From: Patescibacteria group bacterium
GTDB taxonomy: Bacteria; Patescibacteriota; Patescibacteriia; JAHIZJ01
Assembly: GCA_041650335.1 (NCBI GenBank)
Contig: JBAZLK010000004.1
Coordinates: 15,990-79,989 of the forward strand
Direction: 5' to 3'
DNA: 64,000 nucleotides
In this document: positions 41,795-59,413 of the stretch, piece by piece
How the letters are laid out: every line of letters begins with the position of its first letter
Position numbering within the stretch: position 1 is the stretch's first letter
The notes under the pieces: model-generated
Databases searched by the model: none
Told to the model about the DNA's origin: nothing
What the model saw: only the letters and a program-made list of their open reading frames with translations
Position numbers and translations under genes: made by a program

Positions 41795-43141
41795 ATGAGA
41801 GGAACCTGGGTATTTGTAGCTGCCTTTCTCATGCTTGCTGGAGTCTGCTGCGCGCCGACATCGCCGCCGCTGACTTCTCAGCAGCCCGCGACCGTGTCGA
41901 CCCAGTCAGTTACTCCTCTCAAGCTGGACTTTGGTTCGGTTTCACCAGGTTGCTCGAACTCGTTGAGCCTCAGGGTGAACAACCTGACGGCCAACCCGAT
42001 CGAGAGCTCGGTGAAGTCGTCGAACAAACACTTCTCGGTCAATCCGTCGGTTATCACTCTCCAGCCGTTCGAGTCTCGGCTGCTCACCGTTACGTACTCG
42101 CCTCTGAAGCACGGTCGGCACAAGTGCACGATCAGCTTCGGGGCGAGGAACCTGAAGACGGTGAAATGCCAAGGCCGCGGCGGCGAGAACAAACCGACCC
42201 GCGACAAGTACTACTGGCCGTTTTCGATCAGCAGCATCTGGAACACGCCGATCGGATCCGAGGCGCACTATGTCTCGGCCGGCCTGCGGCCCAGTCTCTG
42301 GATCGCGCCCGACAAGGAGTATCTGTACTTCGAAGGACGCGAGCGACTGCTCTACGGAAACGGGAAGTGGCCAGGAGAATGCAGCGGCAGCAACGAACTG
42401 GCCAAGATCATCGTGCCGGACGGTGCCTTGATCCCCGCGAACGACGGCAACACGACCTCGGCCTTTGTCTTGGCTGACGGAAACACCGTCTACCAGGCAA
42501 ATCCGACCGCCCGCTGTGATCCCACCGGCCCCGCCTATGCCGGCTGGAAAGCGCCCACCGTCAACTTGTATGGAGATGGGATCGGCGGCGGTCATGGCGG
42601 ATCGAGCCTGGCTACGCTCGGTGGTTCTATCCGCCTGGGCGAGCTATTTAGCCTCGCCCCGATTCGGCACGCGCTGAAGATCGACATCTGGATGGCCCGG
42701 CACGGATCGAAAACCCAGTCAGGCTTCCGCTGGCCGGCCGCGCGCGCCGATCATTACTACCTGCGGGAGTACGACAAGGAGGGCGTCGCCAAGCCGGCCG
42801 TACGCATGGGTTGTCTACTCGCCATTCCGTCCAACATGAACCTCGATTCGCTGGGGCTGAAAACCGACCCGGCAATGAAGATCGCCCAAGCGTTACGCGA
42901 TTACGGGGCCTACGTCGTCGACGACTCATACTGGGATGCCGTCAACCTGTGCGTTGAGAGCGGTGTCCCGGCCGAATTCGCGACTCGCTGCGGCTACGAC
43001 TTCAGCCAACAGTCCGGTGACTGGTACGACGACATGATGAAGCTCTTCCAGCTCCTTTGCGTCGTCGACAACAACACTCCGACAACCGTCGGTGGCGGCG
43101 GACTGCCGCTCGTACCGCCAGCACCGCCGATCGGCAACTGA
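41795..43141 (+). CDS. High-G+C secreted hypothetical protein (signal peptide + Ig-like N-domain + unknown C-domain)
   Basis: start refined to ATG 41795 (MRGTWVFVAAFLMLAGVCC signal/lipoprotein-like peptide) because the longer ORF-track start would overlap the upstream GT4 gene and the AT-rich promoter TTGACA(41725)-N16-TATATT; markedly higher G+C than flanks; spurious overlapping ORFs in all frames. Confidence 0.5.
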   Translation: MRGTWVFVAAFLMLAGVCCAPTSPPLTSQQPATVSTQSVTPLKLDFGSVSPGCSNSLSLRVNNLTANPIESSVKSSNKHFSVNPSVITLQPFESRLLTVTYSPLKHGRHKCTISFGARNLKTVKCQGRGGENKPTRDKYYWPFSISSIWNTPIGSEAHYVSAGLRPSLWIAPDKEYLYFEGRERLLYGNGKWPGECSGSNELAKIIVPDGALIPANDGNTTSAFVLADGNTVYQANPTARCDPTGPAYAGWKAPTVNLYGDGIGGGHGGSSLATLGGSIRLGELFSLAPIRHALKIDIWMARHGSKTQSGFRWPAARADHYYLREYDKEGVAKPAVRMGCLLAIPSNMNLDSLGLKTDPAMKIAQALRDYGAYVVDDSYWDAVNLCVESGVPAEFATRCGYDFSQQSGDWYDDMMKLFQLLCVVDNNTPTTVGGGGLPLVPPAPPIGN

Positions 43142-44011: not shown

Positions 44012-45211
44012 ATGCGCTTGGCATTTATCACGAACAGCCTTCCCTATCCGCCCGAAAAGGACGGGCAAGCCTTAATCGCCTATCATTTATTGACGCGCCT
44101 GTCTCAACGGCACCAGATCCGATTGCTTTGTTTTGGCGACAAACACGATCTCCCGAATATCAAGCGTTTTACCGACCTCGGCATCAGTGTGAAGCTTTTT
44201 GACCGCCCGAAGCGCCTGCTTCCCTTCTACTATCTCTCGCCGAAGTCGCGTTCAATGGCCTGGTTCCAATACCAGCTGTACACGCCCGAAATGATCTGGG
44301 AAATCGAAACGCTCGACGGTCGCCCCGATGTCGATCTCGTCTATTTCCACTCCCCGTTCATTTCGGCCTACCTGAAACATATCTCACACACACCCGTTGT
44401 TTTTGGTTATATTGACGCGTATTCCTCGTGGTATGAACAATTCCGGGCCATCACGAAAAATCCGTTAAAAAAAATCCATTATCGCTTCGAGCGTGAAAAA
44501 GCTATCGCTCTTGAGCAACACGTCCTGCCGACATTGTCGGAAACTATTGTTGTCTCAGCTGTTGACCGCAAAACCATCCAGCAGCTCGCCCCGACGGCCA
44601 ACGTATCCGTTATTGCCAACGGCGTGGATCTAAAATTCTTCCGTCCCTCGGAATCACAACCTGATAACGAAACGATTGTCTTCACCGGGACCATGAATTT
44701 TCCGCCGAACGTCCGGGCCGTCCTCGATTTCAATAAGAATGTCTGGCCGTTGCTCAAGCAAGCGCACCCGCGAGTCCAATGGTATATCGTCGGAAAGAAT
44801 CCGACCCTCGATATTTTCGAGCTTCAGTCGCTCGATCCACAAATCACCGTTACCGATTATGTAAAGGACATCCGCTGTTATTTATGGCGCTCGGCTGTGT
44901 ATGTCTCGGCCATAACGCTTGGTGCCGGCTTTAAAAACAAAATTGTCGAGGCGATGGCCTGCGGCAAGGCGATCGTCGCCACGCCAACCAGCATCGCTGG
45001 ATTACCGATCTCTGACGGCGAGAATATCTTCGTGGCAAATTCTTCCCATGAAATGTATGAAAAAATACACCGGCTCTTTGAGTCGTCCGATCTACGTCAG
45101 AAGGTTGAACGCCAAGCCCGGATCTTTGCCGAGCAGTATGATTGGAACATAGCTATTCAAAAATACGAATCAATTTTTATTAAACATGCCCGTCCCAATG
45201 CAGAGGTATAG
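44012..45211 (+). CDS. Glycosyltransferase family 4
   Basis: GT-B pattern, C-terminal VYVSAITLGAGFKNKIVEAMACGKAIVAT motif; 399 aa. Confidence 0.7.
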   Translation: MRLAFITNSLPYPPEKDGQALIAYHLLTRLSQRHQIRLLCFGDKHDLPNIKRFTDLGISVKLFDRPKRLLPFYYLSPKSRSMAWFQYQLYTPEMIWEIETLDGRPDVDLVYFHSPFISAYLKHISHTPVVFGYIDAYSSWYEQFRAITKNPLKKIHYRFEREKAIALEQHVLPTLSETIVVSAVDRKTIQQLAPTANVSVIANGVDLKFFRPSESQPDNETIVFTGTMNFPPNVRAVLDFNKNVWPLLKQAHPRVQWYIVGKNPTLDIFELQSLDPQITVTDYVKDIRCYLWRSAVYVSAITLGAGFKNKIVEAMACGKAIVATPTSIAGLPISDGENIFVANSSHEMYEKIHRLFESSDLRQKVERQARIFAEQYDWNIAIQKYESIFIKHARPNAEV

Positions 45212-46583
45212 CTTTCAACGAATCGGACAAACTCTTTTTCTGACGGTGTTGATCGCGGCGCCGCTCTTATATGCCATTACGCGGCATCCGACCTACGAAA
45301 ATATCTTACAAATTTTGATTTTAACGGTATTATTACCGATATTTTTAATTGACTATGAGCTGGGCTTTCTTGCTCTCATCGTCCTTCGCCCAGCCATGGA
45401 CACATTCAGCCAGATTGATTTTCTCAACGTCGGACAATTTTCCCTGAATCTGTCATCCGTGGTCGGTTTGCTGGTCATCGCCTGGATACTATTTTACCTT
45501 ATTCGCCGTCAAGAACGCGTTTGGAAACAGCCGTTGTTTTGGCCCTTTTTTGTCTTTGTCATTATCAGCGTCATCTCATTATTCTACACCCCGTCACTCT
45601 CCGCCACGATCCGGGAAGTCGTCAGGATCGCCAGCATATTCTTTATCTATTTAATGGCTGGCGCCATGGTCGTCAATAGAAAAGGCGCCGCTCGCTTTCT
45701 GAAGGCCATCGCGCTTTCTAGCATCATACCCATAACGGTTGCTTTGTATCAATTTTTCACGCAAACGGGATTGAGCTTTGCCGGATTGAATAACCGCGTC
45801 TACGGCACGCTGGTTCATCCCAATGCCTTTGCTACCTATTTACTCATTATTTTCATTCTCGGATTCGGTTATTTTTTATCCCATCGTCAAGAGGGAATAA
45901 AAAAACACGGTTGGCTCATCATCGGCCTACTTCTTACAATCGGTCTACTGATCTTGACTTATACGCGCGGCGCCTGGATTTGTTTCGGAATTATTGTTTT
46001 CATCATGGGCCTGAAATACTATAAGAAAGTGTTGGTGGCGCTTTTTGGCCTGGCTGTGTTCCTGTTGCTTTTTGGTCCAACGCTTAACCGTTTCATCTTT
46101 ACGAATTTTGACTATGATTTTTCCCGCAATCCTGTCATCCAGCGTCTGACGGAAAAGAATTCCGACGCCGAAAGCTCGATCGATTGGCGCTTCAAGGTCT
46201 GGACGGAAATGAGCCGTAAAATCGCCGACCGGCCGTATCTGGGTTATGGCTTTGGCGCGTTTCCGGTGATCCGCCAGCAATTCGTGAAGGGTATGTACGA
46301 GAGCACCGAGGCTCATAACGACTATCTCCGCCTGGTGATCGAGCTTGGCCTGGTGGGCATACTGGCGTACTTGGTAATTTTAGGTAAGCTTGTTTACAAT
46401 ATTTTCCAACATTTACGAGCCAAGCTTCCAGCGACGGATAAAGCCTGGCTGTATTCCGGCTTATCGCTGATCGCGGCCGTTCTGGTGATGAGCATTTCGG
46501 ACAATGTTCTGCAGGGAACGGCGAATATGTGGCTTTTCTGGGCGGGCATGGCCGTATTGCAAAAACTTCCGACATTAAAGTAG
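45186..46583 (+). CDS. O-antigen ligase / Wzy-like polymerase family polytopic membrane protein
   Basis: ~10-12 TM helices, periplasmic loop with YTRGAW...H motif region typical of Wzy_C/O-antigen ligase family. Confidence 0.6.
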   Translation: MPVPMQRYSFQRIGQTLFLTVLIAAPLLYAITRHPTYENILQILILTVLLPIFLIDYELGFLALIVLRPAMDTFSQIDFLNVGQFSLNLSSVVGLLVIAWILFYLIRRQERVWKQPLFWPFFVFVIISVISLFYTPSLSATIREVVRIASIFFIYLMAGAMVVNRKGAARFLKAIALSSIIPITVALYQFFTQTGLSFAGLNNRVYGTLVHPNAFATYLLIIFILGFGYFLSHRQEGIKKHGWLIIGLLLTIGLLILTYTRGAWICFGIIVFIMGLKYYKKVLVALFGLAVFLLLFGPTLNRFIFTNFDYDFSRNPVIQRLTEKNSDAESSIDWRFKVWTEMSRKIADRPYLGYGFGAFPVIRQQFVKGMYESTEAHNDYLRLVIELGLVGILAYLVILGKLVYNIFQHLRAKLPATDKAWLYSGLSLIAAVLVMSISDNVLQGTANMWLFWAGMAVLQKLPTLK

Positions 46584-46606
46584 TCTTCTTTTTACGCACT
46601 AAACGG

Positions 46607-46635
46607 TTGCCCGAACATTTGGGCAATATTTTATT
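46607..46635 (+). terminator. Intrinsic terminator after O-antigen-ligase-like gene (TTGCCC-gaacattt-GGGCAA + T-rich tail)
   Basis: 6-bp stem, 8-nt loop, followed by TATTTTATT. Confidence 0.45.
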
Positions 46636-46646
46636 ACAAAGAAAAA

Positions 46647-46683
46647 GAGCCCGTTCGTCTCGAGATGAGACTACTAGGGCTCT
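46647..46683 (-). terminator. GC-rich intrinsic terminator of the high-GC minus-strand operon
   Basis: AGAGCCC...GGGCTCT 7-bp outer stem with inner GTCTC/GAGAC stem; on minus strand followed by CUCUUUUUCUUU. Confidence 0.5.
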
Positions 46684-46714
46684 AAAGAGCTGCCGCTTGG
46701 TAGCGGCCTACTGA

Positions 46715-47275
46715 CTACTGCTTCCCGACCCAGGTCCAGGTGCCGTCGGCGTTCCAGATGGGCCGATACCCGCCGAACTGCTGGCCCTTGTCGTTCTTGG
46801 CCCGACTCGGGTGGTTCCAGGTCCACGGCCAGGCCGTGACGCCGTCGGCCGAGGGTCGGCACCAGAGGTAGCACCCCTCGTCCTGGCACTTGCATTCCTT
46901 CAGCGGGATGACGAACTCGACCGCCTGGCTGCCATTGCCCACGTTCGCCACCGTGGGATCGGTTTCGACGCAGAGCAGGCCGCTCAGTCCGACCGTGTAG
47001 GGGCCGGGAACGGGGGTCTGGCCCGACCATTCGATGGCCTTCGGAAAGCTGACGAAGATGCGGATGTGCCACCCGTCAGCAGCCAGATACGAGTCGATCG
47101 GGTTCTTGTCCGACAGGGTCGGACGCGCCGGAGCCGCGGGAGCCGGGGTGACCGCCGCCTTCGCGCTGTCAGCCGGCGGCGGAGCCACCTGGCTGTCCTT
47201 GATCTCGGCCAGCGCGGGCTGGACGAGCGCGAACGTGACAACCGCGACCATGAGCACGAGCATGAGCTTCTTCAT
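46715..47275 (-). CDS. High-G+C secreted hypothetical protein, Cys-containing (186 aa)
   Basis: start refined to ATG at 47275 (MKKLMLVLMVAVVTFALVQPALA signal peptide) with SD GGAGGAATGGAGAA upstream; Ala/Pro-rich linker then domain with CxC...C...C (KECKCQDEGCYLWC). Confidence 0.45.
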   Translation of the reverse strand: MKKLMLVLMVAVVTFALVQPALAEIKDSQVAPPPADSAKAAVTPAPAAPARPTLSDKNPIDSYLAADGWHIRIFVSFPKAIEWSGQTPVPGPYTVGLSGLLCVETDPTVANVGNGSQAVEFVIPLKECKCQDEGCYLWCRPSADGVTAWPWTWNHPSRAKNDKGQQFGGYRPIWNADGTWTWVGKQ

Positions 47276-47333
47276 TTCTCCATTCCTCCGTGGGTTTGAG
47301 TTTCCGAACTTGCTACTAGGTCGTGGCGGGAAC

Positions 47334-48221
47334 TCAGGGGTTCCCGCCGATGTGGATGCCGTAGAGCCGTTCATCTCCGTCCCTGGGGTTCTTGAACTCC
47401 CCGGAGCCGGTGATCGCGTACTCGAAGGCACAGTACCCATTACCCAGATCGTGGATACACTTCAGGAGCGTCGCCTGTTCGAAGTTGTCTTCCGGACCGA
47501 AGTAGACGCCGGCCCGGAGTTCTTCGCCGGTGAGCTTCTGAAGCCTCAGGTAGCCCTTGGACGCCTTCTTGACCATCACCTTCTCGTTCTCGGTGGTCCA
47601 TCGCCCGCTGACGAACTCCATTGCGTGAGCACGATCGCGGAAGCCGGTCCATGTCCCCAGCCATTCGACCGGCTGGGTAGGATCGGCGGGCCAGTTTCGC
47701 CCGTCCGGCAGTCCGGTACCGGTGTACCAGATCTGCGCCGAAATCAGGGAATCAGGTCCGTCTGGGGACACCGCGATCGCCCCGTTCTCGAGGTAGACCG
47801 AGAAGGAACGACAGGTCTCCCACTCATTGGAGCCCGCCGATCCCTGAATCCGAGTGCCGCCGACCGAGATGTCGACCATCCGGTAGTAGCGGCTGTCGGC
47901 CGGATTCTTGGCCCAGAACCAGACTGGGATGCCCTTCTCGTTGCCCCACGACCACCAGAGGTAGTCCCCCTCGACGTGGCCGTCGGCATAGGTGGCAAAC
48001 GGCATCCTGATGTTCCGATCCTGTTCGTATCCAGGCACGACCGGACCGCTGATATACACCGGCCAGCCGTCCTCGGCCACCGCGCACGTCGCGGAAAAGC
48101 CGAGCGTCATCTGTTCCTGCTCGGACAGCCCGGGCGCGGTCATCGTCCACTCGTCACGGCTGCAGCCCAGGGGCATGATCGCCACCAGGACCAGCAGTGC
48201 CACCAACACATACCTGCGCAT
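47334..48221 (-). CDS. High-G+C hypothetical lipoprotein/secreted protein (295 aa)
   Basis: start refined to ATG 48221 (MRRYVLVALLVLVAIMPLGC - signal peptide ending in Cys) with SD GGAGGAAACCGAAG upstream; Trp/Gly-rich beta-type sequence. Confidence 0.45.
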   Translation of the reverse strand: MRRYVLVALLVLVAIMPLGCSRDEWTMTAPGLSEQEQMTLGFSATCAVAEDGWPVYISGPVVPGYEQDRNIRMPFATYADGHVEGDYLWWSWGNEKGIPVWFWAKNPADSRYYRMVDISVGGTRIQGSAGSNEWETCRSFSVYLENGAIAVSPDGPDSLISAQIWYTGTGLPDGRNWPADPTQPVEWLGTWTGFRDRAHAMEFVSGRWTTENEKVMVKKASKGYLRLQKLTGEELRAGVYFGPEDNFEQATLLKCIHDLGNGYCAFEYAITGSGEFKNPRDGDERLYGIHIGGNP

Positions 48222-48244
48222 CTTCGGTTTCCTCCTTCTTCCTT

Positions 48245-50068
48245 CTACCAGCTGTGGTCGAGGCTGATCCCCGCCCACTGCCGGTCCGTGTGGTACACCT
48301 TGCCGTTGACCAGATCCCGGTCGACGGCATCATTCAGGTACTTGAAGTTCCCCTTCAGACGCCACCACCGGTTGATCCGATACTCAATTCCGATCCCGGG
48401 GCCACGCCAGTCGAATGACCAGCTCGGGTTGTCGTACGACCAGGAGTCGTACGAGGCGTAGACGATGATGTAGTGGTTGAACTTGTACCCGATCCGTCCC
48501 TCGAACACCTGCATGGTGTCGGCCGGGAAGGACAGGGTCTGGTTGTCGAAGTGCCGTGACTGTCCGCGGCGGTACTGGACGTCGTACGACGCCCGGAAAT
48601 ACAACGGGTGCGGTTCAATCGAGAAGCTCCCCCCGATCTCGCGATCAAGGTTTGTTCCGCGCTTGAACATCGCCTCGTAGTACCCCAGCTTCGGGGTAAT
48701 GCCGAGCACTCTCGCGTATCCTCCGTAACCATCGAAGTACCGTGCGTCCTCGCGCGCCTTGATGGTCGTGGGCGAAATCTGCCGGTAGTTGATGAACTCG
48801 CGCTGGCCGGCCAGATACCAGGCGCCGGCTTCAAAGCCCGTACGCCAGGCACCCGCCTCGTCGCCGAGGATCCACCCCCGGCCGCCGAGCCGGTAATCGC
48901 CGGACACGTGATTCTTGTCCAGCGACGCCTGCTCGATTCGGATGACAGTCGAGAGATCGCGTAGGCGACCCCAGCCGTCGTAGCCGGAAATCCGTGGCAG
49001 CCACTCCAGTCCTCCCAGGAACGAATGCTGTCGGTCAAGGTTACCCTTCCGGTCTTTCCCGCCCTGGGAATACCGGTAGTCGAGCCACCAGACGCCGCCC
49101 GAGACGAACTCGTGAGACACCTCAGGCTCTTGGGCGTAGAACGGCCCTTCCACCTTGGGCTGTCGAGCCGACTCAGGCGGCGACACCGTCACCTGGCTTT
49201 CGGCTTCGTCCACGAACGCTCGCCTGACATAGGCGGCGTTGCCGCAGACGACGAACCGATACAGGTGGTACCGGTAACCCTCGTAGTCCACAAAGGGATA
49301 TTCGAGGGCAACGGTCCGGTCGACCGACTGTCGCGACTTCGGGTCTTTCCAGAAGCAGGCCGTCCTGCCCCAGGAAATGTTCTTGCCAAAACACAGGCCG
49401 TCGACGATGAGCGGTGACGCCTCAGTTGAGTACATCCAGACACTGTCCGGCGTACTCGCTTCAACGAGGCTCACCCACTCCGCCCGAACCTGGTCCGGTA
49501 CCTTGAAGGACTTGATCTGGTCCTTGAGCGGCGTCCGAGCCGGATCACCGCCGAGGAATTCCCAGCGACGGATGACCTGTTCGGGCTTCTGCGTGAAGAG
49601 ATGCTCGCCCGGCAGGACATACCGTCGATCAAGACCATTCCAGGCTCGAAGAGTATCAGCCGGAACGCCCAGCTCCTTCGAGAGGGCTTTCCAGCCTTCA
49701 CCCGGCTTTACGACTCTGGTGGGTGGCAACCGGATGGGTTCCGGCTGCTTTTCCGAGCGTTTCAGTTCGAGCTTGGTATCCTGGACGGCGACCCAGTTGG
49801 TTGAGTCGCAGTAGGCCAAGACCCGGTACTTCACCCAGAAGGCGTCCTTCCCCGTCTGTTCGACGCAGAAGTCCGTGGCCTTGGGCACCTGTATCCTGAC
49901 CACGCGGTCGTTCACCAGAACGCCCACGTCAACCGTGTTCCTGCCATTCGGCAAGCTCACGGCCTTCAGGTTGATAACGGTGCCCACCGGGGGCTGCGTG
50001 CACTGAGCCAGTGCATTGGTCGAGAAGACCAGCGCGCAGACGAACAACAGAACCGTGAACTGCTTCAT
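48245..50068 (-). CDS. High-G+C secreted protein with LysM-like domain and C-terminal beta-barrel-like region (outer-membrane-protein-like)
   Basis: signal peptide MKQFTVLLFVCALVFSTNALA; LysM-like segment VKPGEGWKALSKELGVPADTLRAWNGLDRRYVLPGEHLF; C-terminal ~300 aa with alternating hydrophobic/aromatic pattern rich in Y/W/G/R ending in ...ISLDHSW (terminal aromatic); SD GGAGGATTCGGTC before ATG. Confidence 0.5.
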   Translation of the reverse strand: MKQFTVLLFVCALVFSTNALAQCTQPPVGTVINLKAVSLPNGRNTVDVGVLVNDRVVRIQVPKATDFCVEQTGKDAFWVKYRVLAYCDSTNWVAVQDTKLELKRSEKQPEPIRLPPTRVVKPGEGWKALSKELGVPADTLRAWNGLDRRYVLPGEHLFTQKPEQVIRRWEFLGGDPARTPLKDQIKSFKVPDQVRAEWVSLVEASTPDSVWMYSTEASPLIVDGLCFGKNISWGRTACFWKDPKSRQSVDRTVALEYPFVDYEGYRYHLYRFVVCGNAAYVRRAFVDEAESQVTVSPPESARQPKVEGPFYAQEPEVSHEFVSGGVWWLDYRYSQGGKDRKGNLDRQHSFLGGLEWLPRISGYDGWGRLRDLSTVIRIEQASLDKNHVSGDYRLGGRGWILGDEAGAWRTGFEAGAWYLAGQREFINYRQISPTTIKAREDARYFDGYGGYARVLGITPKLGYYEAMFKRGTNLDREIGGSFSIEPHPLYFRASYDVQYRRGQSRHFDNQTLSFPADTMQVFEGRIGYKFNHYIIVYASYDSWSYDNPSWSFDWRGPGIGIEYRINRWWRLKGNFKYLNDAVDRDLVNGKVYHTDRQWAGISLDHSW

Positions 50069-50278
50069 GACCGAATCCTCCCCTTTTCAAACCGTGTGAC
50101 TGTCTATGCCGTTTGGTTAGCCGTCTATCTGTAGAACCAGTGACTTGGATCCGTAGATGAAATGTCAATTTGCATCAGTGAGCTTGCGTTGTCGCTTCCT
50201 ACCGCGTGCAAGAGAGCTCACACGTCCAGTACGATTCGCATCGTCCTAAACGTGGCAAGACCTCTTGCGAGGTTTGCC

Positions 50279-51193
50279 TTATTCGAAATTTTGAAATTCC
50301 TCTTCCGGGCCATTCCAAAGCGGTCGGTTCGGGATCGTTTCCGGCGTATCCTTCAGATGGTCGTAGATCGTTCGAATTTTCGTATTGCCTGTATCTTTAT
50401 TCGGTGCAATCGGCTTGCCTTGCCGAACGGTTTCTGGAGTAATTTCGTTTATCGGTTCGAGCGGTTGTGCTTTTGGTATGTATTCTTGAAACATAAAATT
50501 GTTTTCGGCCGGCAACGGCTGTTCAAACGGCTGCTCAGGTACCGCTTCAGCAGGTGCCCTGTCGGCAGTCAACGGCACCGTTTCTTGATTTTTTGATCGC
50601 ATGGCGAGCAGTACCGAGTAGCCGATTGAGCCGCCCAAGCCGAGTAAGATACCGGCGGCCAGATTCAAGGCGATGTTCGGCCGGACCGGCTGATTGCTCG
50701 TGGTCGGATAATCAACGATTTTCAAGACGATTGAATTTCCGCCACCGAGATACTCCGTGCCATTCTCAGACAAGACCATGGCGATGGCATTGGACAGGCT
50801 TTCTGCTTGAGAACGGTTTTGATTATATACCGCCATCTTTATTACTCCGATATCCGGTGAAACGCGAGTTTCAATCTGTCGTTTCCATTGCTCGCGACGC
50901 TTAATTTCGTCTGACGGAAATTTTATATCGGAACTCAGGTAGCCTGAATTCACAACCTTATCGTAGAACGAGGTTGTGTAAATCATTTGGCCAAGCGAAA
51001 CGCTCAGACGTTCGGCTGATTTGGCCGCAGAATAGGCGTCGAGATTCGGATCCTTTTCAATGACAAGCAATGAAAAAGAAGACCGGTATTCGAACGGCTG
51101 TACAAACGTGAATATTACGGCCAAGGCCAGCGTCGTAACCGATACCAGCGTTATCATTAGCCAATTTTGCTTGATCTTCGCTAAATAGTTCAT
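50279..51193 (-). CDS. Wzz-like polysaccharide chain-length determinant / PCP family protein
   Basis: N-terminal TM (LMITLVSVTTLALAVIF), extracytoplasmic domain, second TM (LNLAAGILLGLGGSIGYSVLL), Pro/Glu-rich C-terminal tail. Confidence 0.45.
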   Translation of the reverse strand: MNYLAKIKQNWLMITLVSVTTLALAVIFTFVQPFEYRSSFSLLVIEKDPNLDAYSAAKSAERLSVSLGQMIYTTSFYDKVVNSGYLSSDIKFPSDEIKRREQWKRQIETRVSPDIGVIKMAVYNQNRSQAESLSNAIAMVLSENGTEYLGGGNSIVLKIVDYPTTSNQPVRPNIALNLAAGILLGLGGSIGYSVLLAMRSKNQETVPLTADRAPAEAVPEQPFEQPLPAENNFMFQEYIPKAQPLEPINEITPETVRQGKPIAPNKDTGNTKIRTIYDHLKDTPETIPNRPLWNGPEEEFQNFE

Positions 51194-52540: not shown

Positions 52541-54034
52541 TTATCGAATGGAAAATATTTTTATCTTACGCAGAGCCTGGATGGCCAGCTGGAGGCGCTC
52601 CGTGCTTTGCGCGTAAATCGTGTATGTCGGATCGCCTTTTTTGATTTTGTTCCCGATGCGCTGATGCAAATGCAAACCGGCAAGTTTTTCCTCAGGGGCA
52701 CCAAGAAAGCGCGCAACATCATCAATCACCGCGTCGTCGATATCTTCCAGCGTTCCGCTCCGGTTGGCATAATATCTCTTTTTATACGCGCCGAGGGTGA
52801 CACGGTCGGCTTTGATATTTGGGTTGCCGCCTTGAAGGGCGATGATTTTCTGCATCTTCTTCCAGGCGCGGCCAGAATCTAAAATTTGATAGGCGACCTC
52901 ACGGCCCTTCCCTTTCCGGCACTGACCGCACAGTTCCAGGAGTTCGCCGGCTAACGCAATCGACTTCCGTTCCAGGTCACGCGGCCGCAAGGGATGCCGT
53001 TGCAAAACGCGCAGGACATCGCGCGCTTCCAGGGCCGGACCGACGCCGCGGCCGACCGGTTCGCGCGCCTCACGCATTTGAACTTTTATTTTCATGCCGA
53101 ACCGTTTTCCAAGATAGAGGAATTTCCGCTCGACCTCCCAGGCCAGCTTAACATTCGGGATCTTCGTCGTCGGCCCAACCGGCATATCGATAATCAAATA
53201 CTTGATCCCCATGGCGACTTTCTTGGCCATGATGCTGACAATCATCTTGTTGTAGGGCTCGATACCGAGCGGATGCGAAGCCCGGATAATCCGGTCGTCC
53301 GCCGGCGCGACGTTCAACTCGCCACCCCAAACCAAGCAGCAATTATTCTTCTTCACAAAGTTCGTTATTCGCCGAACCGTATGCTCAACAGGCGCCAGGA
53401 CTTCCATCGTATCGGCTGTGCCGGCGGCTGAGGTGACCGCACGCGACGATGTTTTTGGTATGACCAGGCCGGTCGAGGCGACAATCGGCACGACGATCAT
53501 TGAGGTGCGGTTGCCCGCTAATCCGCCGACGGAATGTTTATCTACTACCTTGCCCCGAAAATTCAAGCGTTCACCCGTTTCAGCCATAGCCTTTGTAAGG
53601 TAATACAGTTCCTCGTCTGAATAGTGGCGGGCAAAACTGCTGGCGATAAAATAGCTGATTTCGCTTTGCCCGAGCCGGCGATCAACAATGTCTTTTATAA
53701 TCGAGTATATTTCTTTGTATGACAGCCTTTTCCCGAGCAGCTTTTTAATAATGGCCTGGATCGAGGCGGGCCGCGCCAGCACCTTTACCTGGACGATTTC
53801 ACGCTGGCGCAATGGGTATTCCTCCCAGATCTCGCGAAACAACCCGATTTCCCCCGGCCGCACTTTTGAGTTCGTAAAGTCGGCTTCGGCAATGACCCGA
53901 CGCTTGCCCCAGCGTATCTCTAAATCATCGCCTGGTTGAACGCCAAAATTTCGCGCTTCTGATTCGCGCAACACCGCGACAAGCGCTCCCTCTGCTTTAA
54001 AGTCAAGTTTCTTGCTTTTTAAGAAAAATGGCAT
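52541..54034 (-). CDS. AMP phosphorylase (thymidine phosphorylase family, archaeal-type)
   Basis: 497 aa with N-terminal extension relative to thymidine phosphorylase; DKHSVGGLAGNRTS phosphate-binding motif; immediately downstream of RuBisCO and R15P isomerase genes. Confidence 0.8.
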   Translation of the reverse strand: MPFFLKSKKLDFKAEGALVAVLRESEARNFGVQPGDDLEIRWGKRRVIAEADFTNSKVRPGEIGLFREIWEEYPLRQREIVQVKVLARPASIQAIIKKLLGKRLSYKEIYSIIKDIVDRRLGQSEISYFIASSFARHYSDEELYYLTKAMAETGERLNFRGKVVDKHSVGGLAGNRTSMIVVPIVASTGLVIPKTSSRAVTSAAGTADTMEVLAPVEHTVRRITNFVKKNNCCLVWGGELNVAPADDRIIRASHPLGIEPYNKMIVSIMAKKVAMGIKYLIIDMPVGPTTKIPNVKLAWEVERKFLYLGKRFGMKIKVQMREAREPVGRGVGPALEARDVLRVLQRHPLRPRDLERKSIALAGELLELCGQCRKGKGREVAYQILDSGRAWKKMQKIIALQGGNPNIKADRVTLGAYKKRYYANRSGTLEDIDDAVIDDVARFLGAPEEKLAGLHLHQRIGNKIKKGDPTYTIYAQSTERLQLAIQALRKIKIFSIR

Positions 54035-54042
54035 CGGTTATA

Positions 54043-55284
54043 TTATCTCCAATAATGTAATGCGGTCTGTAATTCTGGATGCGTTTTCGCGTAATCCGAC
54101 AATCGTTGATGCGACGTGACGGCCTCAACGGCCTGTTTCGCCGCCCGAGCGCCAGCCAATGTCCCGCCGGGGTGGCCGTGAATGCCGCCGCCAAAGTTAA
54201 TGATCACGTCCGGTCCAATAATTTTGAGCAATTTCGGCACCAGCCGAGGATGGAGTCCGCCGGAAGCGATCGGCATGACCGGTTTTATATTTCCCCAGGG
54301 TGACTTCAAAAAGGTATTGATAGCGACTGTCTCCCGCGCCGAACCTTCCATTTTTCCAACGACTGTGCCGCTATGGAGTTGATCAACGCCAGCCAAACGG
54401 GCGAGTTTTGCGATCACGAGCATGGAAATACCGTGCTTCGGATCGCGGGTCATGACCGAATGCATGGCTCGATGAGCATGGATGATCAGTCCGGTCTTCG
54501 CCTGCCGGACCGCCTGAACACCGGCGAAACCCGCTGTCATAATATCTATCATCGCGCAGTTGCCGCCAGATTGCTTAATGAAACGCGCCCGTCGGATCAT
54601 TTCGCTGGCCGGAGCAGTAATATTAAACACACACATTTTTCGCTCACCGGTTTTCTTTTCAATTTCCTTTGCTAATCGTAGTGTTTCGCGAACCCTTTTT
54701 TGAAACGGATTAAATCGTTGATCGGTTAAATTCTCGTCGTCCTTCACGAGATCGGCCCCGCCCAGAAAACAGTCAGCGGCAAATTTCGCATGTTCGCGCC
54801 ACGACAAACCCATTTTCGGTTTCATGATCGCGCCGATGAGCGGCCGTCTTGGTACACCGAGCAGGCGCCGAATGCCAACGATACCGTGCGCCGGTCCCAG
54901 GAACGAATGAAGGAACGCCGCCGGCATTTTTAAGTCCTCAAGACGAAGCTTGGTAATGAGTTTCATCGAAAATACGTTCCCAGCGACACTCGATAAGAGT
55001 TGCGGGATATTACCAGGCTCGAAGAGTTCGAGCGGATAGGCGATCCGGACAAGCTTGTCGTTCGGCGATACGGAAATAACTTTTGCTGAGAGTCGACGAA
55101 ACATTGCCGCCTTCATCGTCTTGGTTGTCGTCCACGTGCCGACTGACGATTCGGCGGCCACGATTTGGGCACTGTCTCGCAATGGAACGGGTGATTCAAT
55201 TCGAAATGTGACGATAATATGAGTCGCCGTGTTTATGCGTTTTCCGAGGGCGAGATAATTTTGTTTGAGGTAACCGCTCTTCAT
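54043..55284 (-). CDS. rbcL: Ribulose-1,5-bisphosphate carboxylase/oxygenase large subunit, form III-like
   Basis: 413 aa; GTWTT, KPKMGLS, GGADLVKDDEN (carbamylated Lys region), RAMH, SGGLHP...FGGGIHGHP motifs; no small subunit gene; AMP-pathway neighbours. Confidence 0.9.
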   Translation of the reverse strand: MKSGYLKQNYLALGKRINTATHIIVTFRIESPVPLRDSAQIVAAESSVGTWTTTKTMKAAMFRRLSAKVISVSPNDKLVRIAYPLELFEPGNIPQLLSSVAGNVFSMKLITKLRLEDLKMPAAFLHSFLGPAHGIVGIRRLLGVPRRPLIGAIMKPKMGLSWREHAKFAADCFLGGADLVKDDENLTDQRFNPFQKRVRETLRLAKEIEKKTGERKMCVFNITAPASEMIRRARFIKQSGGNCAMIDIMTAGFAGVQAVRQAKTGLIIHAHRAMHSVMTRDPKHGISMLVIAKLARLAGVDQLHSGTVVGKMEGSARETVAINTFLKSPWGNIKPVMPIASGGLHPRLVPKLLKIIGPDVIINFGGGIHGHPGGTLAGARAAKQAVEAVTSHQRLSDYAKTHPELQTALHYWR

Positions 55285-56195
55285 TTCAGTAACCAGGGGT
55301 AATGCTTATTTACATACGCCCGCACCCGGCTCGGCTCAATCAAGCCGAATTCAGTAACAAGTCGGGTAATATTCTTCGCTGGTACGCGGTCAAATGCGAA
55401 ATTAATGATATTGACACCGACCGGCGCATCGGCCCAGACTTCTTTTGCCGACCGACGCTCAATAGGGGTGGCGGCCGATCGGCTGTATTTTAATAAACTG
55501 CAAACGATATAGACCGGGACCCCTTGTTCGGACGCCGCCAGTGTCAGGCCATAACTCCCAATTTTGTTTATTATTGATCCATCGGCGGAAATGACGTCAG
55601 CGCCGATGACAACCGAATCCATCATGAGCTCTTTGCCGGAAGCCTCGCTGACCAAAAACGGACCGGCACCGTCGACGACAATCGTAACCGGTATTCTTTT
55701 TGCCTGTAACTTCTTCGCAGTAATATGCCCCTGATACAGCGGCCGTGTTTCGGACGCGAAGACGTGAAATTTCTTTTTTTCGTGCGTTTTAACGAGAAGC
55801 TGTTCGACGGTTGACGAATGACAATGGGTGTAGACTTTGTCACCTGTTTGAATGAGGGCCCGGCCAAGGAGACTGATGCGTTCTTGGGTTTGCACCAGCA
55901 AGAGAAGGAATTCAGCGGTTGATCTTTTGAGAATGAATTTTGTCGGTTGGCGCCGGACGCGGTCCCAAACGAACCGCAGGCCGTTCTGAGCCAGTGGTTC
56001 GGTCGGCCGGTTGTTCCGCCAGAGATAGTTCCGAGCGGCCTTCATTTGAGACAGCCAGTTCGTGGTCCGTCTCAGTTGCAACCGAACGCCAAAGTCGCAA
56101 TAGGCGTTGAGCGTTGCCCGGGCAACCTCGGTGGCGCCTTGATATTTGAACGTTTGGATATCTCGCAAAACTCGATCAAGCTGTCCGTATGACAT
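55281..56195 (-). CDS. Ribose-1,5-bisphosphate isomerase (eIF-2B alpha/beta/delta-like, e2b2 family)
   Basis: 304 aa; eIF2B-like fold signature (VYTHCHSSTV, VIGADVISADGSIINKIGS); 4-nt overlap with rbcL. Confidence 0.75.
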   Translation of the reverse strand: MSYGQLDRVLRDIQTFKYQGATEVARATLNAYCDFGVRLQLRRTTNWLSQMKAARNYLWRNNRPTEPLAQNGLRFVWDRVRRQPTKFILKRSTAEFLLLLVQTQERISLLGRALIQTGDKVYTHCHSSTVEQLLVKTHEKKKFHVFASETRPLYQGHITAKKLQAKRIPVTIVVDGAGPFLVSEASGKELMMDSVVIGADVISADGSIINKIGSYGLTLAASEQGVPVYIVCSLLKYSRSAATPIERRSAKEVWADAPVGVNIINFAFDRVPAKNITRLVTEFGLIEPSRVRAYVNKHYPWLLK

Positions 56196-56980: not shown

Positions 56981-59413
56981 TTAGATTAATGTTTTTTCGC
57001 CTTCGCGTCGCTTACTGCCGGCCAAGGGGAGCGTAAAGAAAAAGCTTGTCCCCTGCCCTTCGACAGATGTAAACCAGATTTTGCCGCCAGACGCGTCAAC
57101 GACTGATTTCGCCACATAGAGGCCAAGTCCCGTGCCTTCCGTTTGGAGCGTGATCACATTGTCGGCCCGGAAAAACTTCTTAAATACTTTTGACTGCTGG
57201 GCTTTTGGTATACCGACGCCGGAATCAAATATTTCAAATTGGAGATACTTACCGGCTTTCGTGATCCGCACGCCGGTCGTACCGCCTTCCGGCGTATATT
57301 TTACGGCATTAGAAAGGAGGTTTTGAAAGACCTGACGAATAAGCTTTGAGTCGATTTTAATCTTCGGCGTGCCGCCCGGCAGTGTCTTGAAAACCGTTTT
57401 GATATTCTTCTGTTTGATGAGCGGAGTCAATTCGAAGAGAACGCTTTTGACCATGCCGTCCATATCGCTGCTGACCGGCTCGATGGCGATCGTGCCGGAC
57501 TCGATCCGAGAAACATTGAGCAGGTCATTGACCAACGCGATCATCCGCTCGTTCGATTTATAGGTATGGTCAAGATACTCGTGCTGCTCGTCGTTGAGCT
57601 TGCCGGCGTCGCCATCGAGCAACATCTCCAAAAACCACTTTGAGGCCGATAACGGCGTCCGTAATTGGTGCGAGGCGACGGAGACAAATTCTGACTTCAT
57701 TTTATCAATTTCCTGTTCTTTTGTCACATCCCGGAGCACGACAACGCCTCCTTTAATGACGCCGTGCGCGTCGATCAGCGGCGCGGCCGTAATGGTGACC
57801 GGAATTTCTTTCTTTGCTTTGTTTATGATGGCGTAGTCACCGGTTCCCGTCACGATGATCTGGCCGGTTTTAATCGACTCCATGATCGGCGAATATTCTT
57901 TATTGGCATCGATGAGTTTCAGACTCTTTAAGACAATAATATTATCAAGCTGCGAACCGATGACCTCGGTATTTGCATAGCCGAGCAGTTCACTGGCCGC
58001 TTCGTTGCAGGCGATAAAGGAGAGATTTTCGTCCAATGCCAAGACGCCATCGCCGACATTCGCCAAAATTGATTCCGATTTATTTTTTTCCCGTTCAATC
58101 GAATGTTGGGCGCGTTCAAGATCTTTCACTTTTTGGCGCAACTCCTGCGTCCGCTTCGCCACCAGATCCTCCAGTTTCGTGTAATATTCCAAGAGCTTAT
58201 CTTTCATGATAATAAAGCTGTGGGTAAGATCGCCGATTTCATCGTCCCGTTCGGGCGCCTTGATGTCGATATCCAGGTTGCCACGGCTGATCCGATAGGC
58301 ATTCGCAGCCAGCTTCTTTAATGAATTTACAATCTGCCGCGTGATGATGCTCGTGACAATAAAAACGATGATCAAGGCTATTCCGCCAACAATAATATAC
58401 CGCCACTGGAGTCCCGAAATATTTTTTTGTATTTCTGATTCAACGATGCCCCGGGCAATGCTTCCAACAACCTCATTGTTGCTGTCGCGTAAAGGAATAT
58501 ACGACATTAAATACCAATCGTTCACCTCAAATGCCCGGCCTGAAAAATTATTTTGCGAGACGTAAACGGTATTGACGACGTCTTCCGAGGCGAGAGTGCC
58601 TTCGGCCGATTCGTTCCGGTCGCGATACGTTTGGGTAGTCGCAACCCGGGCGTCGTATAAATAGATGGTGGCGATGCCGCCGCTTTTTTGGGTAACGTCC
58701 TCGAGAAGCGTTACGTCATTGTTCATAAGGATGCCGCTGACGACCGCGCCAATCACCGCGTTGTCTTTCTTTATCACCGATACCGCCGTCATGAATAACC
58801 CGTCCGTTTCCGCCTTTTTATCACGCCAGCCGGTTTTCTGAAGTTCAGTCGTCCGACGAGTTACCTTCGCTTGTTCTAATAATTCTGGGCTCAGAACAGC
58901 CAGTTCGGCGCTGGGAATGACTTCAATTGATTTAACCGGGAGACCGCTCTTTATAACACCATCTACGAATCCCCTGATCGATAATTTTTTCCCTGTTTGG
59001 GCGTTCGTGCTTGCAGCCAGTATTTGCGCTTTGGTATTGACGATGGCGATGAAACTTGCGTCTCGCGCGCTCTGTTCATCGATAAGCGCTTCCTTCAGCG
59101 ACGCATACTCCGCCAGGTTACCGATGGTTGCCAGGTCAGGCTGATTGCTTAATGTTTGACTTCCATTTTTGATGGCTGTTCGCTGGGCAAAAGAATCAGT
59201 ATCAAAATAGAGTCTCTCAAGGCTATTATTAAAAATAAGGGACAATGCTTCCCCCTGCTGATTGACCCGCAGTTGTATTTCTTTTTTTAAACTCGCCGAG
59301 GTGTTTGATAGTGAAACGTAAATCAATGCTCCAAGCATAATAGTCGCTAACAGCGACACTTGGAATATCACCCGACGCGTTAAACTACTGCTAAACGGTT
59401 TCCACATATTCAT
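56981..59413 (-). CDS. Sensor histidine kinase (TM - Cache-like - TM - HAMP - PAS - HisKA - HATPase_c)
   Basis: 810 aa; two TM segments flanking ~280-aa periplasmic domain; H-box SHQLRTPL; N, G1 (DSGVGIP), G2 (GTGLGL) boxes. Confidence 0.85.
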   Translation of the reverse strand: MNMWKPFSSSLTRRVIFQVSLLATIMLGALIYVSLSNTSASLKKEIQLRVNQQGEALSLIFNNSLERLYFDTDSFAQRTAIKNGSQTLSNQPDLATIGNLAEYASLKEALIDEQSARDASFIAIVNTKAQILAASTNAQTGKKLSIRGFVDGVIKSGLPVKSIEVIPSAELAVLSPELLEQAKVTRRTTELQKTGWRDKKAETDGLFMTAVSVIKKDNAVIGAVVSGILMNNDVTLLEDVTQKSGGIATIYLYDARVATTQTYRDRNESAEGTLASEDVVNTVYVSQNNFSGRAFEVNDWYLMSYIPLRDSNNEVVGSIARGIVESEIQKNISGLQWRYIIVGGIALIIVFIVTSIITRQIVNSLKKLAANAYRISRGNLDIDIKAPERDDEIGDLTHSFIIMKDKLLEYYTKLEDLVAKRTQELRQKVKDLERAQHSIEREKNKSESILANVGDGVLALDENLSFIACNEAASELLGYANTEVIGSQLDNIIVLKSLKLIDANKEYSPIMESIKTGQIIVTGTGDYAIINKAKKEIPVTITAAPLIDAHGVIKGGVVVLRDVTKEQEIDKMKSEFVSVASHQLRTPLSASKWFLEMLLDGDAGKLNDEQHEYLDHTYKSNERMIALVNDLLNVSRIESGTIAIEPVSSDMDGMVKSVLFELTPLIKQKNIKTVFKTLPGGTPKIKIDSKLIRQVFQNLLSNAVKYTPEGGTTGVRITKAGKYLQFEIFDSGVGIPKAQQSKVFKKFFRADNVITLQTEGTGLGLYVAKSVVDASGGKIWFTSVEGQGTSFFFTLPLAGSKRREGEKTLI

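Follow-up and report, generated by a model that had tools for sequence, protein, structure and literature searches.

A predicted LysM and beta-barrel protein heads an ancient operon of deviant base composition in the surface-glycan locus of a Patescibacteria clade

OmpA has a beta-barrel of about 8 strands and OmpM one of more, while the barrels of OPX-type composite translocons have 16-18 strands. OmpA and the OmpM-type SLH-porins of diderm Terrabacteria combine a wall-binding module with a transmembrane barrel, and bacteria of the Candidate Phyla Radiation (CPR) have been placed in a clade that lost the OmpM-type system (bioRxiv 10.1101/2021.05.31.446380). In the OPX/beta-barrel export translocons of Wzx/Wzy pathways, a barrel gene accompanies genes for a polysaccharide co-polymerase (PCP, Wzz-like) and a Wzy-type protein, and the barrel works with accessory periplasmic or lipid-anchored partners (PMC9601211, PMC9603273). 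Sus-like systems place a barrel gene beside that of a lipoprotein built of starch-binding-type beta-sandwiches. Here we describe a three-gene operon, P1-P2-P3, that shares features with each of these systems. It lies in a 64,000-nt stretch of DNA (the window) from a Patescibacteria group bacterium (GenBank assembly GCA_041650335.1, contig JBAZLK010000004.1, positions 15,990 to 79,989 of the forward strand). A preliminary description, made from the sequence alone, had picked out the three genes as a G+C-rich block inserted in a polysaccharide locus, and had read them either as a horizontally acquired, non-ameliorated envelope module or as foreign DNA mis-joined by assembly or binning. Our analysis shows instead that the trio is an ancient, vertically inherited operon, fixed in the surface-glycan locus of one Patescibacteria (CPR) clade. 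The three genes and their two neighbours are as follows (GC3, G+C at third codon positions; SD, Shine-Dalgarno).

50279-51193, minus strand: Wzz-like polysaccharide co-polymerase gene (Pfam Wzz E 5e-6, weak GNVR), of host-type G+C and without an SD site
48245-50068, minus strand: P1, 607 aa, G+C 0.613, GC3 0.80
47334-48221, minus strand: P2, 295 aa, G+C 0.630, GC3 0.82
46715-47275, minus strand: P3, 186 aa, G+C 0.672, GC3 0.89
45186-46583, plus strand: Wzy_C (O-antigen ligase/polymerase family) membrane protein gene (Pfam Wzy_C E 7e-22)

The two Pfam matches bear out the O-antigen-ligase-like and Wzz-like genes first described on either side of the block. The trio itself was found as a conserved gene neighbourhood, which the preliminary description had suggested looking for, in 13 related loci of a single Patescibacteria clade. 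The order Wzz-like, P1, P2, P3, convergent Wzy_C holds in all 13, down to about 25% identity in P1; in every one the Wzz-like gene (42-95% identity) stands directly upstream of P1 and the convergent Wzy_C gene is the downstream neighbour of the trio. The block is therefore a fixed component of the glycan locus and not something inserted into it. The contexts fetched were those of P0002, P0003, P0004, P0011, P0012, P0013, P0016, P0021 and P0024, plus the loci L013, L025 and L026, the extra loci having come from contig scans with an 8-sequence alignment. Across loci P2 measures 286-367 aa and P3 123-260 aa; P2 homology is recognisable in all loci tested, and P3 similarity drops below significance in the most distant locus. 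Loci that are far apart in P1 are also far apart in Wzz and Wzy (correlation of pairwise distances, r 0.93 and 0.92 respectively), and the well-resolved groupings agree.

The family appears confined to this clade. A word-indexed search of 5.8 billion proteins returned 4 relatives of P1 and 2-3 of P2; it gave none for P3, whose relatives were taken from the related loci. A profile search with P1 among 1.84 billion representative proteins yielded about 27 true full-length relatives, the other matches being multi-LysM proteins that align only at residues ~100-185, and no homologue outside the clade was found in it beyond the LysM domain.

A chimera produced by assembly or binning would account for the abrupt breaks in composition at both ends of the block. 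However, the exact protein and identical junctions are present on a 368-kb ENA MEGAHIT contig and on a 10-kb Logan contig of another run, so that different pipelines and different runs give the same result. A sister-species version, 81% identical, occurs on 21 contigs from many samples; the contigs carrying the locus reach 0.9-1.18 Mb, and near-identical junctions recur on those of at least 5 samples. Four sister-species loci show 0-15 differences from the reference over 12-21 kb, junctions included. Moreover, the breaks fall at gene ends, and the terminators and leader hairpin described below are conserved across species. With the same junctions in independent assemblies and several samples, we regard the mis-joining proposed at first as having next to no probability.

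In comparison with the sister species, the trio has a synonymous divergence (dS) of 0.33-0.74 and 13 neighbouring genes one of 0.25-1.03; the ratio of nonsynonymous to synonymous divergence (dN/dS) is 0.21-0.27 in the trio and 0.02-0.14 in the neighbours. The three are real genes, kept by purifying selection, and they change faster than the genes around them. Relative to locus L007, synonymous sites are saturated. Synonymous third-position differences affect 20% of comparable codons in G+C-rich genes and 23% in host genes. The synonymous changes are balanced, with 106 going from strong to weak and 90 from weak to strong, and the high GC3 of the trio is therefore a maintained equilibrium.

These numbers bear directly on the possibility of a recent horizontal acquisition that has not yet ameliorated. 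As that reading predicts, the genes differ from those of the host in G+C content, codon usage, tetranucleotides and SD usage as foreign DNA would. The orthologous trios nevertheless occupy the same place in 13 loci, to about 25% identity, and co-diverge with their neighbours; dS is like that of the neighbours, synonymous sites are saturated relative to L007 and GC3 is stationary; and there are neither relatives outside the clade nor signatures of mobility. Independent assemblies, fixed synteny, co-divergence and normal turnover together argue against a chimera and against a recent transfer that has yet to ameliorate, and the second of these, the horizontally acquired module of the preliminary description, is in our judgement very improbable. 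A phage or other mobile origin was also considered and rejected: no viral contig encodes a relative of the trio, P1-P3 match no PHROG phage family, no tRNA was found and no repeats bracket the trio, whose position is fixed in all relatives; a search for mobility genes likewise found none. The block thus resembles a classical genomic island in its deviant G+C, codon usage and k-mers and in its sharp borders, but differs from one in lacking an integrase, a tRNA and flanking repeats, and in being syntenic across a deep clade, co-diverging, with saturated but stationary synonymous sites.

The jump in base composition that first drew attention to the block is confirmed by calculation: in 400-nt windows G+C is 0.59-0.69 from about 46.65 to 50.07 kb and 0.43-0.53 on both sides, and 47 other genes across the whole window have G+C 0.38-0.55 and GC3 0.39-0.68. 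The tetranucleotide and codon comparisons suggested at the outset agree with this. Measured against the rest of the window, the block has a tetranucleotide distance of about 0.037 and all other 3.4-kb chunks one of 0.011-0.019, roughly a two-fold excess over any of them, and the codon use of the trio departs from that of host genes most in the two-fold families, as seen in the shares of AAG (0.92 in the trio, 0.37 in host genes), CAG (0.98 and 0.48) and TTC (0.86 and 0.32). G+C at first and second codon positions (GC1, GC2) is elevated as well as GC3. It falls at the ends of the trio genes, in the leader and in the trailer, and the pooled internal spacers have G+C 0.595, a value inflated by one uncalled stretch. 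The stop-free overlapping open reading frames (ORFs) noted earlier are indeed present, including antisense or overlapping ORFs of up to 475 aa across the operon (for example 47034-48461, plus strand, and others in 46.7-50.0 kb); we likewise read them as by-products of high G+C and not as genes.

The block is not the only G+C-rich part of the window. A second gene of this class had been overlooked:

41795-43141, plus strand: island 2 gene, encoding a 448-aa lipoprotein-like secreted protein, G+C 0.612, GC3 0.77

Its product carries an ASH / choice-of-anchor-D immunoglobulin-like domain (Pfam ASH 5.5e-12, NCBIfam choice_anch_D 4e-6), and its C-terminal half matches the phage minor-tail protein family phrog_17388 (E 4e-16). 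The slot that it occupies lies between two GT4 genes, and in the relatives it is always filled by a G+C-rich gene for a secreted product, of varying identity (ASH-domain lipoprotein, GHL15, unknown proteins).

The contrast between the trio and its surroundings depends on the genome, as the coding G+C of the related loci shows:

L013 and L025: background about 0.39-0.45, trio 0.55-0.57
L007: background about 0.39-0.50, trio 0.56-0.61
Window and L003: background about 0.42-0.53, trio 0.60-0.67
L010, L015 and L022: background about 0.45-0.56, trio 0.59-0.64
L018, L017 and L023: background about 0.51-0.63, trio 0.59-0.65
L020: background 0.62-0.66, trio 0.58-0.64, the contrast being gone

A second property sets these genes apart. 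Taking as an SD site any GGAGG, AGGAG or GAGGT 4-12 nt before the start, and checking in-frame starts from -30 to +150 as well, we found such sites before 3/3 trio genes in the window and before 0/48 others, the host leaders being 69% A+T and 13% G. The organism seems to do without SD sites in general, with A/U-rich, G-poor leaders. The counts in nine relatives, which rest on database gene calls, are:

Trio genes with an SD site: 19/27
Island-2 genes with an SD site: 5/8
Other genes with an SD site: 3/75

Some of the trio genes scored without a site look like start miscalls (for example P2 in L003 and L007). In L020 an SD site is found on P2 and on two other genes of unknown function, one of them in the island-2 slot, and is missing from Wzz, Wzy, TopA and DprA; the called starts of P1 and P3 scored none. 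Since L020 shows this pattern with no contrast in composition, SD use is a property of the gene class and not of G+C. One of the three other genes with a site encodes an M29 aminopeptidase (L017:1762-2883, minus strand), with a 7-nt SD site and a GC3 of 0.81 against a background of about 0.65, and the class is therefore not limited to envelope genes. These results show that the odd composition is a maintained gene-class signature, kept through repeated replacement of synonymous sites and through a drift of genome G+C between 0.39 and 0.63.

The pairing of SD sites with GC3-rich codons is most likely caused, we infer, by selection on translation for high or separately regulated expression. A competing cause would be GC-biased gene conversion acting locally, where variable surface genes form a hot spot of recombination, a process with which the faster evolution of the trio and the somewhat G+C-rich internal spacers (0.595 when pooled, with the inflation mentioned above) would be consistent. 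Gene conversion leaves the SD sites unexplained, however, and sits poorly with the fall of G+C at gene ends, leader and trailer, with a dS that is not raised and with phylogenies congruent with those of the neighbours; within-species polymorphism, at 0-15 differences, is too low to probe it. Because SD sites and high G+C go together, do so independently of the background, and because G+C drops at gene ends, selection on translation fits better, and we give little credence to biased gene conversion.

Bacteroidota translate largely independently of SD sites and have few SD-led genes, with a sequestered anti-SD and an SD-led rpsU. The present genomes are similar in that SD sites are nearly absent, leaders are A/U-rich and a handful of genes carry a strong site, but the SD-led genes here encode envelope proteins and are G+C-rich. 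A scan of the window and of eight related loci for rRNA, which would show the anti-SD of the 16S rRNA, found none. Part of the Parcubacteria lack the anti-SD motif in their 16S rRNA (Tsurumaki et al., PMC9297842); our literature searches found nothing that describes SD usage in a clade such as this.

All three products begin with a visible signal peptide and none matches a curated family, as had been said of them before. P1 was modelled with AlphaFold2 from a 25-sequence alignment (mean predicted local distance difference test, pLDDT, 87.3), and its predicted parts are:

Residues 1-22: signal peptide
Residues ~30-106: beta-sandwich
Residues 117-158: LysM domain, strand-helix-helix-strand in the model
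Residues ~160-295: family-specific alpha/beta domain with invariant A254, C275 and N277
Residues 299-320: disordered Pro-rich linker
Residues 323-606: 14-stranded beta-barrel, all-beta, ending in Trp

The LysM-like segment of the preliminary description holds at the level of the family profile. The window sequence by itself scores 19.4 bits, under the Pfam (PF01476) cut-off of 20.9, whereas the profile of the P1 family matches LysM domains in the PDB at E 3.4e-11 (the LysM of LytE), and 13/25 family members have a Pfam LysM match, the best at 3.9e-10. By its sequence, this domain would hold the protein on peptidoglycan. The C-terminal half, first described as beta-barrel-like with an aromatic end, is predicted to be just that: the structure model and fold search that had been suggested gave a 14-stranded barrel together with the LysM fold. 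Searching the PDB with Foldseek returned outer-membrane barrels only (FadL E 6e-9, OmpG TM-score 0.56), of which the best fold matches were 14-stranded. In the predicted structure the barrel is closed, antiparallel and even-stranded, as transmembrane barrels are, and its strands show period-2 hydrophobicity. The last residue is W, F or Y in 19/25 members, typically in the form G-L-x-Y-x-[WF], reminiscent of the signal that the Bam machinery recognises. In one locus, L010, the P1 gene call starts late, and tblastn extends the match upstream (L014 2789-4660).

The sequence matches to known barrel families all stay below threshold: Pfam OMP_b-brl at E 0.005 for P1, with 3/25 members matching and a best value of 3.5e-4, and LptD, OmpA_membrane and Porin_4 in one P1 member each. 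No SLH or OmpA_C domain was matched by Pfam in P1 or its 25 homologues, and no Poly_export/SLBB (OPX) domain in P1-P3 at E<=1 or in the 25 P1 homologues. Judged on such matches, P1 stands apart from the known families in their defining features, with no SLH or OmpA_C, no OPX and only sub-threshold similarity. Its 14 strands agree with the OmpG/CymA/FadL class, but identity is 7-9%, P1 joins its barrel to a beta-sandwich, a LysM and an alpha/beta domain private to the family, and the protein is encoded by a CPR genome. Like OmpA and the SLH-porins it joins a wall-binding module to a transmembrane barrel, and as in OmpM that module is N-terminal and the barrel C-terminal; unlike them it uses LysM instead of SLH or OmpA_C, and its barrel has 14 strands. 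With the OPX/beta-barrel translocon it shares a place beside co-polymerase and Wzy-type genes, as well as partners of the accessory type, but the trio has no Poly_export/SLBB domain, the strand number is again 14, and the host has no documented outer membrane.

P2, earlier called lipoprotein-like, has a signal peptide with a lipobox (...LGC) in which Cys20 is invariant in 10/10 orthologues and G, A or S stands at -1, in agreement with that designation. Its model (pLDDT 79, predicted template modelling score 0.74) contains two beta-sandwich domains, which at the level of fold may be CBM20/48-like, of sugar-binding type, and a conserved NPRxxDER motif lies at the C-terminus. A barrel gene beside the gene for such a lipoprotein is what Sus-like systems have, a likeness at fold level only, and the trio lacks the 22-stranded TonB-dependent barrel, the plug and the SusD-like protein of those systems. 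P3 is the fastest-evolving member of the trio and has no family or PDB match. In the translations and the alignment its signal peptide is followed by a linker rich in Ala and Pro and by a domain of about 110 aa that contains Cys residues and a conserved GWPW motif. The Ala/Pro linker had thus been described correctly; the spacing of the Cys cluster had not, for it is CxC-x4-C-x3-C, with x4 and not x3 after CxC, and it is specific to the window and the sister species and not conserved in the orthologues. The P3 orthologue of L010 (L010:5631-6413, plus strand) is extended at its N-terminus by a Cys-rich segment, CCVEDGTCKVTTNADCAGAWTDGGVCDPNPCP, and contains a long linker rich in Lys, Glu and Pro.

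With the products in view, an ancient transfer can be considered, in which a G+C-rich, SD-using diderm donor passed the operon to the ancestor of the clade and donor-style features were then locked in, for example through a structured, G+C-rich mRNA whose translation in this cell depends on its SD site. Lipoproteins and outer-membrane-type barrels whose C-terminus resembles a beta-signal are inventions typical of diderms, and SD sites and G+C-rich codons go together, also in the M29 peptidase of L017. On the other hand, the profile search of 1.84 billion proteins revealed no homologue outside the clade beyond LysM, and the G+C-rich L020 and L017 suggest that the clade ancestor may itself have been G+C-rich. 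We consider such a transfer possible, although unlikely; it concerns the origin of the operon and is compatible with the explanation that we prefer.

The signals that delimit the operon could be mapped as follows:

50208-50268, minus strand: leader RNA hairpin of 24 bp, in the 210-nt Wzz-P1 leader, starting about 10 nt after the Wzz stop
50077-50081, minus strand: SD site of P1, GGAGG, 8 nt before the ATG at 50068 and kept in most orthologues
48231-48236, minus strand: SD site of P2, AGGAGG
47285-47289, minus strand: SD site of P3, GGAGG
~46641-46683, minus strand: intrinsic operon terminator, in which UUUUUC follows a nested G+C-rich hairpin (-21.9 kcal/mol, z -2.4)
46606-46637, plus strand: convergent terminator of the Wzy-type gene, the fold with z -3.3 lying at 46606-46627

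Start codons and SD sites agree with those given at the outset for all three genes, and so do the gaps, 23 nt between P1 and P2 and 58 nt between P2 and P3. Folding likewise upholds both the GC-rich terminator with a U-run ascribed to the block and the intact native terminator beside it. The hairpin of the operon terminator is also present in L007, with a compensatory change from GUCUC/GAGAC to GUUUC/GAAAC. These signals support the view of the block as a self-contained envelope operon. The leader hairpin has no U-run. Over 5 sequences 94% of its cells are paired, with compensatory double changes in 12/24 pairs; 0/500 shuffles reached this level, and slid controls were 28-45% paired. Because many of its pairs are G-U on the sense strand, it is a feature of the RNA that is transcribed from Wzz into P1. 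No Rfam family matches even at E<=1, and the hairpin could be an element for processing, stabilising or attenuating the transcript.

We propose that the three genes form an ancient, clade-specific operon for a wall-tethered glycan channel or anchor, bearing a composition signature linked to translation, and we hold this account as a whole to be fairly probable. All three products would leave the cytoplasm through Sec. P1 would sit with its LysM on peptidoglycan and, beyond the flexible Pro-rich linker, place an OmpG/CymA/FadL-type barrel in an outer lipid layer, to serve there as channel or anchor; P2 would be lipid-anchored and offer its CBM20/48-like, sugar-binding folds, and P3 would be a small accessory subunit. 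Together with the co-polymerase and the polymerase/ligase, the trio most likely makes up the outermost stage of glycan handling, at which glycan is passed on, bound or anchored at the surface of the cell, either exporting the cell's own polymer or taking up oligosaccharide.

Several points weigh against this proposal. CPR bacteria are described as monoderm (PMC8871954; bioRxiv 10.1101/2021.05.31.446380), and no membrane is known in them for the beta-barrel to sit in. Bam, Lol and Lpt genes were not seen in the 74 kb read, and our literature searches brought up no earlier account of outer-membrane barrels from Patescibacteria. As to the translational part, the window's genes for ClpB, GreA, RRF and RuBisCO have neither SD sites nor G+C-rich codons, and codon choice alone is an incomplete account of the G+C of the trio, since GC1 and GC2 are raised too.

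The missing membrane could also be that of another cell. The P1 barrel might be delivered into the outer membrane of the episymbiont's bacterial host, as a docking or feeding port, and in the extreme form of this idea the genes would be tuned to the host's translation system. A transmembrane barrel with no known membrane of its own, a long flexible linker after the wall-binding part, the raised dN/dS and the diderm-style signals would all suit such a device. No mechanism of the kind is known, however; the strict linkage to Wzz and Wzy genes that belong to the cell itself speaks for the cell's own envelope, an M29 peptidase of cytoplasmic type is also among the SD-led, G+C-rich genes, and the conserved leader and terminator are the operon's own. 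A device directed at the host is, on this evidence, quite improbable. More broadly, the clade may own or exploit a second bilayer in which P1 is a true peptidoglycan-tethered outer-membrane protein, whether as a relic of a diderm ancestry of the CPR/Terrabacteria or as a pore in the host outer membrane, the SD-led G+C-rich genes marking a separate translation regime; this reading we rate as rather doubtful.

The rest of the window is ordinary chromosome, with genes for MreBCD, PBP2, Alr, Ddl, GreA, ClpB, Def/Fmt, PriA and LexA, several aminoacyl-tRNA synthetases and a TagA/WecG-type transferase. The clade might be similar to Peregrinibacteria, with genomes near 1.2 Mb, a form II/III RuBisCO and G+C of up to about 0.6 (PMC4736985). 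Beyond Wzy_C the usual order is GT4, the variable secreted gene, GT4, GHL15+FG-GAP and a CLIPPER-like gene. Further features near the glycan locus, in the window and 10 kb upstream of it, are:

52541-56195, minus strand: archaeal-type AMP salvage operon adjoining the glycan locus, with genes for AMP phosphorylase, form II/III-like RuBisCO and ribose-1,5-bisphosphate (R15P) isomerase
56981-59413: Cache/PAS histidine kinase, followed by two response-regulator genes in the 56.2-57.0 kb gap (gene calls of the contig)
L024:1-5094, 10 kb upstream of the window: second Wzy_C gene, two GT2 genes, a DUF4012 protein and an extra MreB-like gene, all of host-type G+C

From the second Wzy_C gene it follows that the genome has at least 2 Wzy-type glycan loci. 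No further G+C-rich genes were found in the 10 kb upstream of the window. Two loci, L011 (CAYJKP010000001.1) and L013 (CAZQLY010000007.1), come from species-representative metagenome-assembled genomes labelled 'uncultured Gammaproteobacteria bacterium', a label that is probably wrong because their locus has a CPR-type neighbourhood.

What is unusual here is the combination of an outer-membrane-type barrel in a CPR clade with a foreign-looking signature that is ancient and maintained. The monoderm view of CPR bacteria is part of the debate on gains and losses of the outer membrane, and a conserved barrel of predicted outer-membrane type, under selection and fused to a wall-binding domain, makes the question of a bilayer, their own or a host's, testable in named genomes. 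Deviant G+C, codons and ribosome-binding sites are the standard marks of transfer or contamination, yet here they go back as far as the clade itself, and software that calls islands or cleans bins by composition would discard these core envelope genes in error. Finally, a few strongly SD-led genes in a genome otherwise without SD sites hint at a second layer of translation control in bacteria with reduced genomes.

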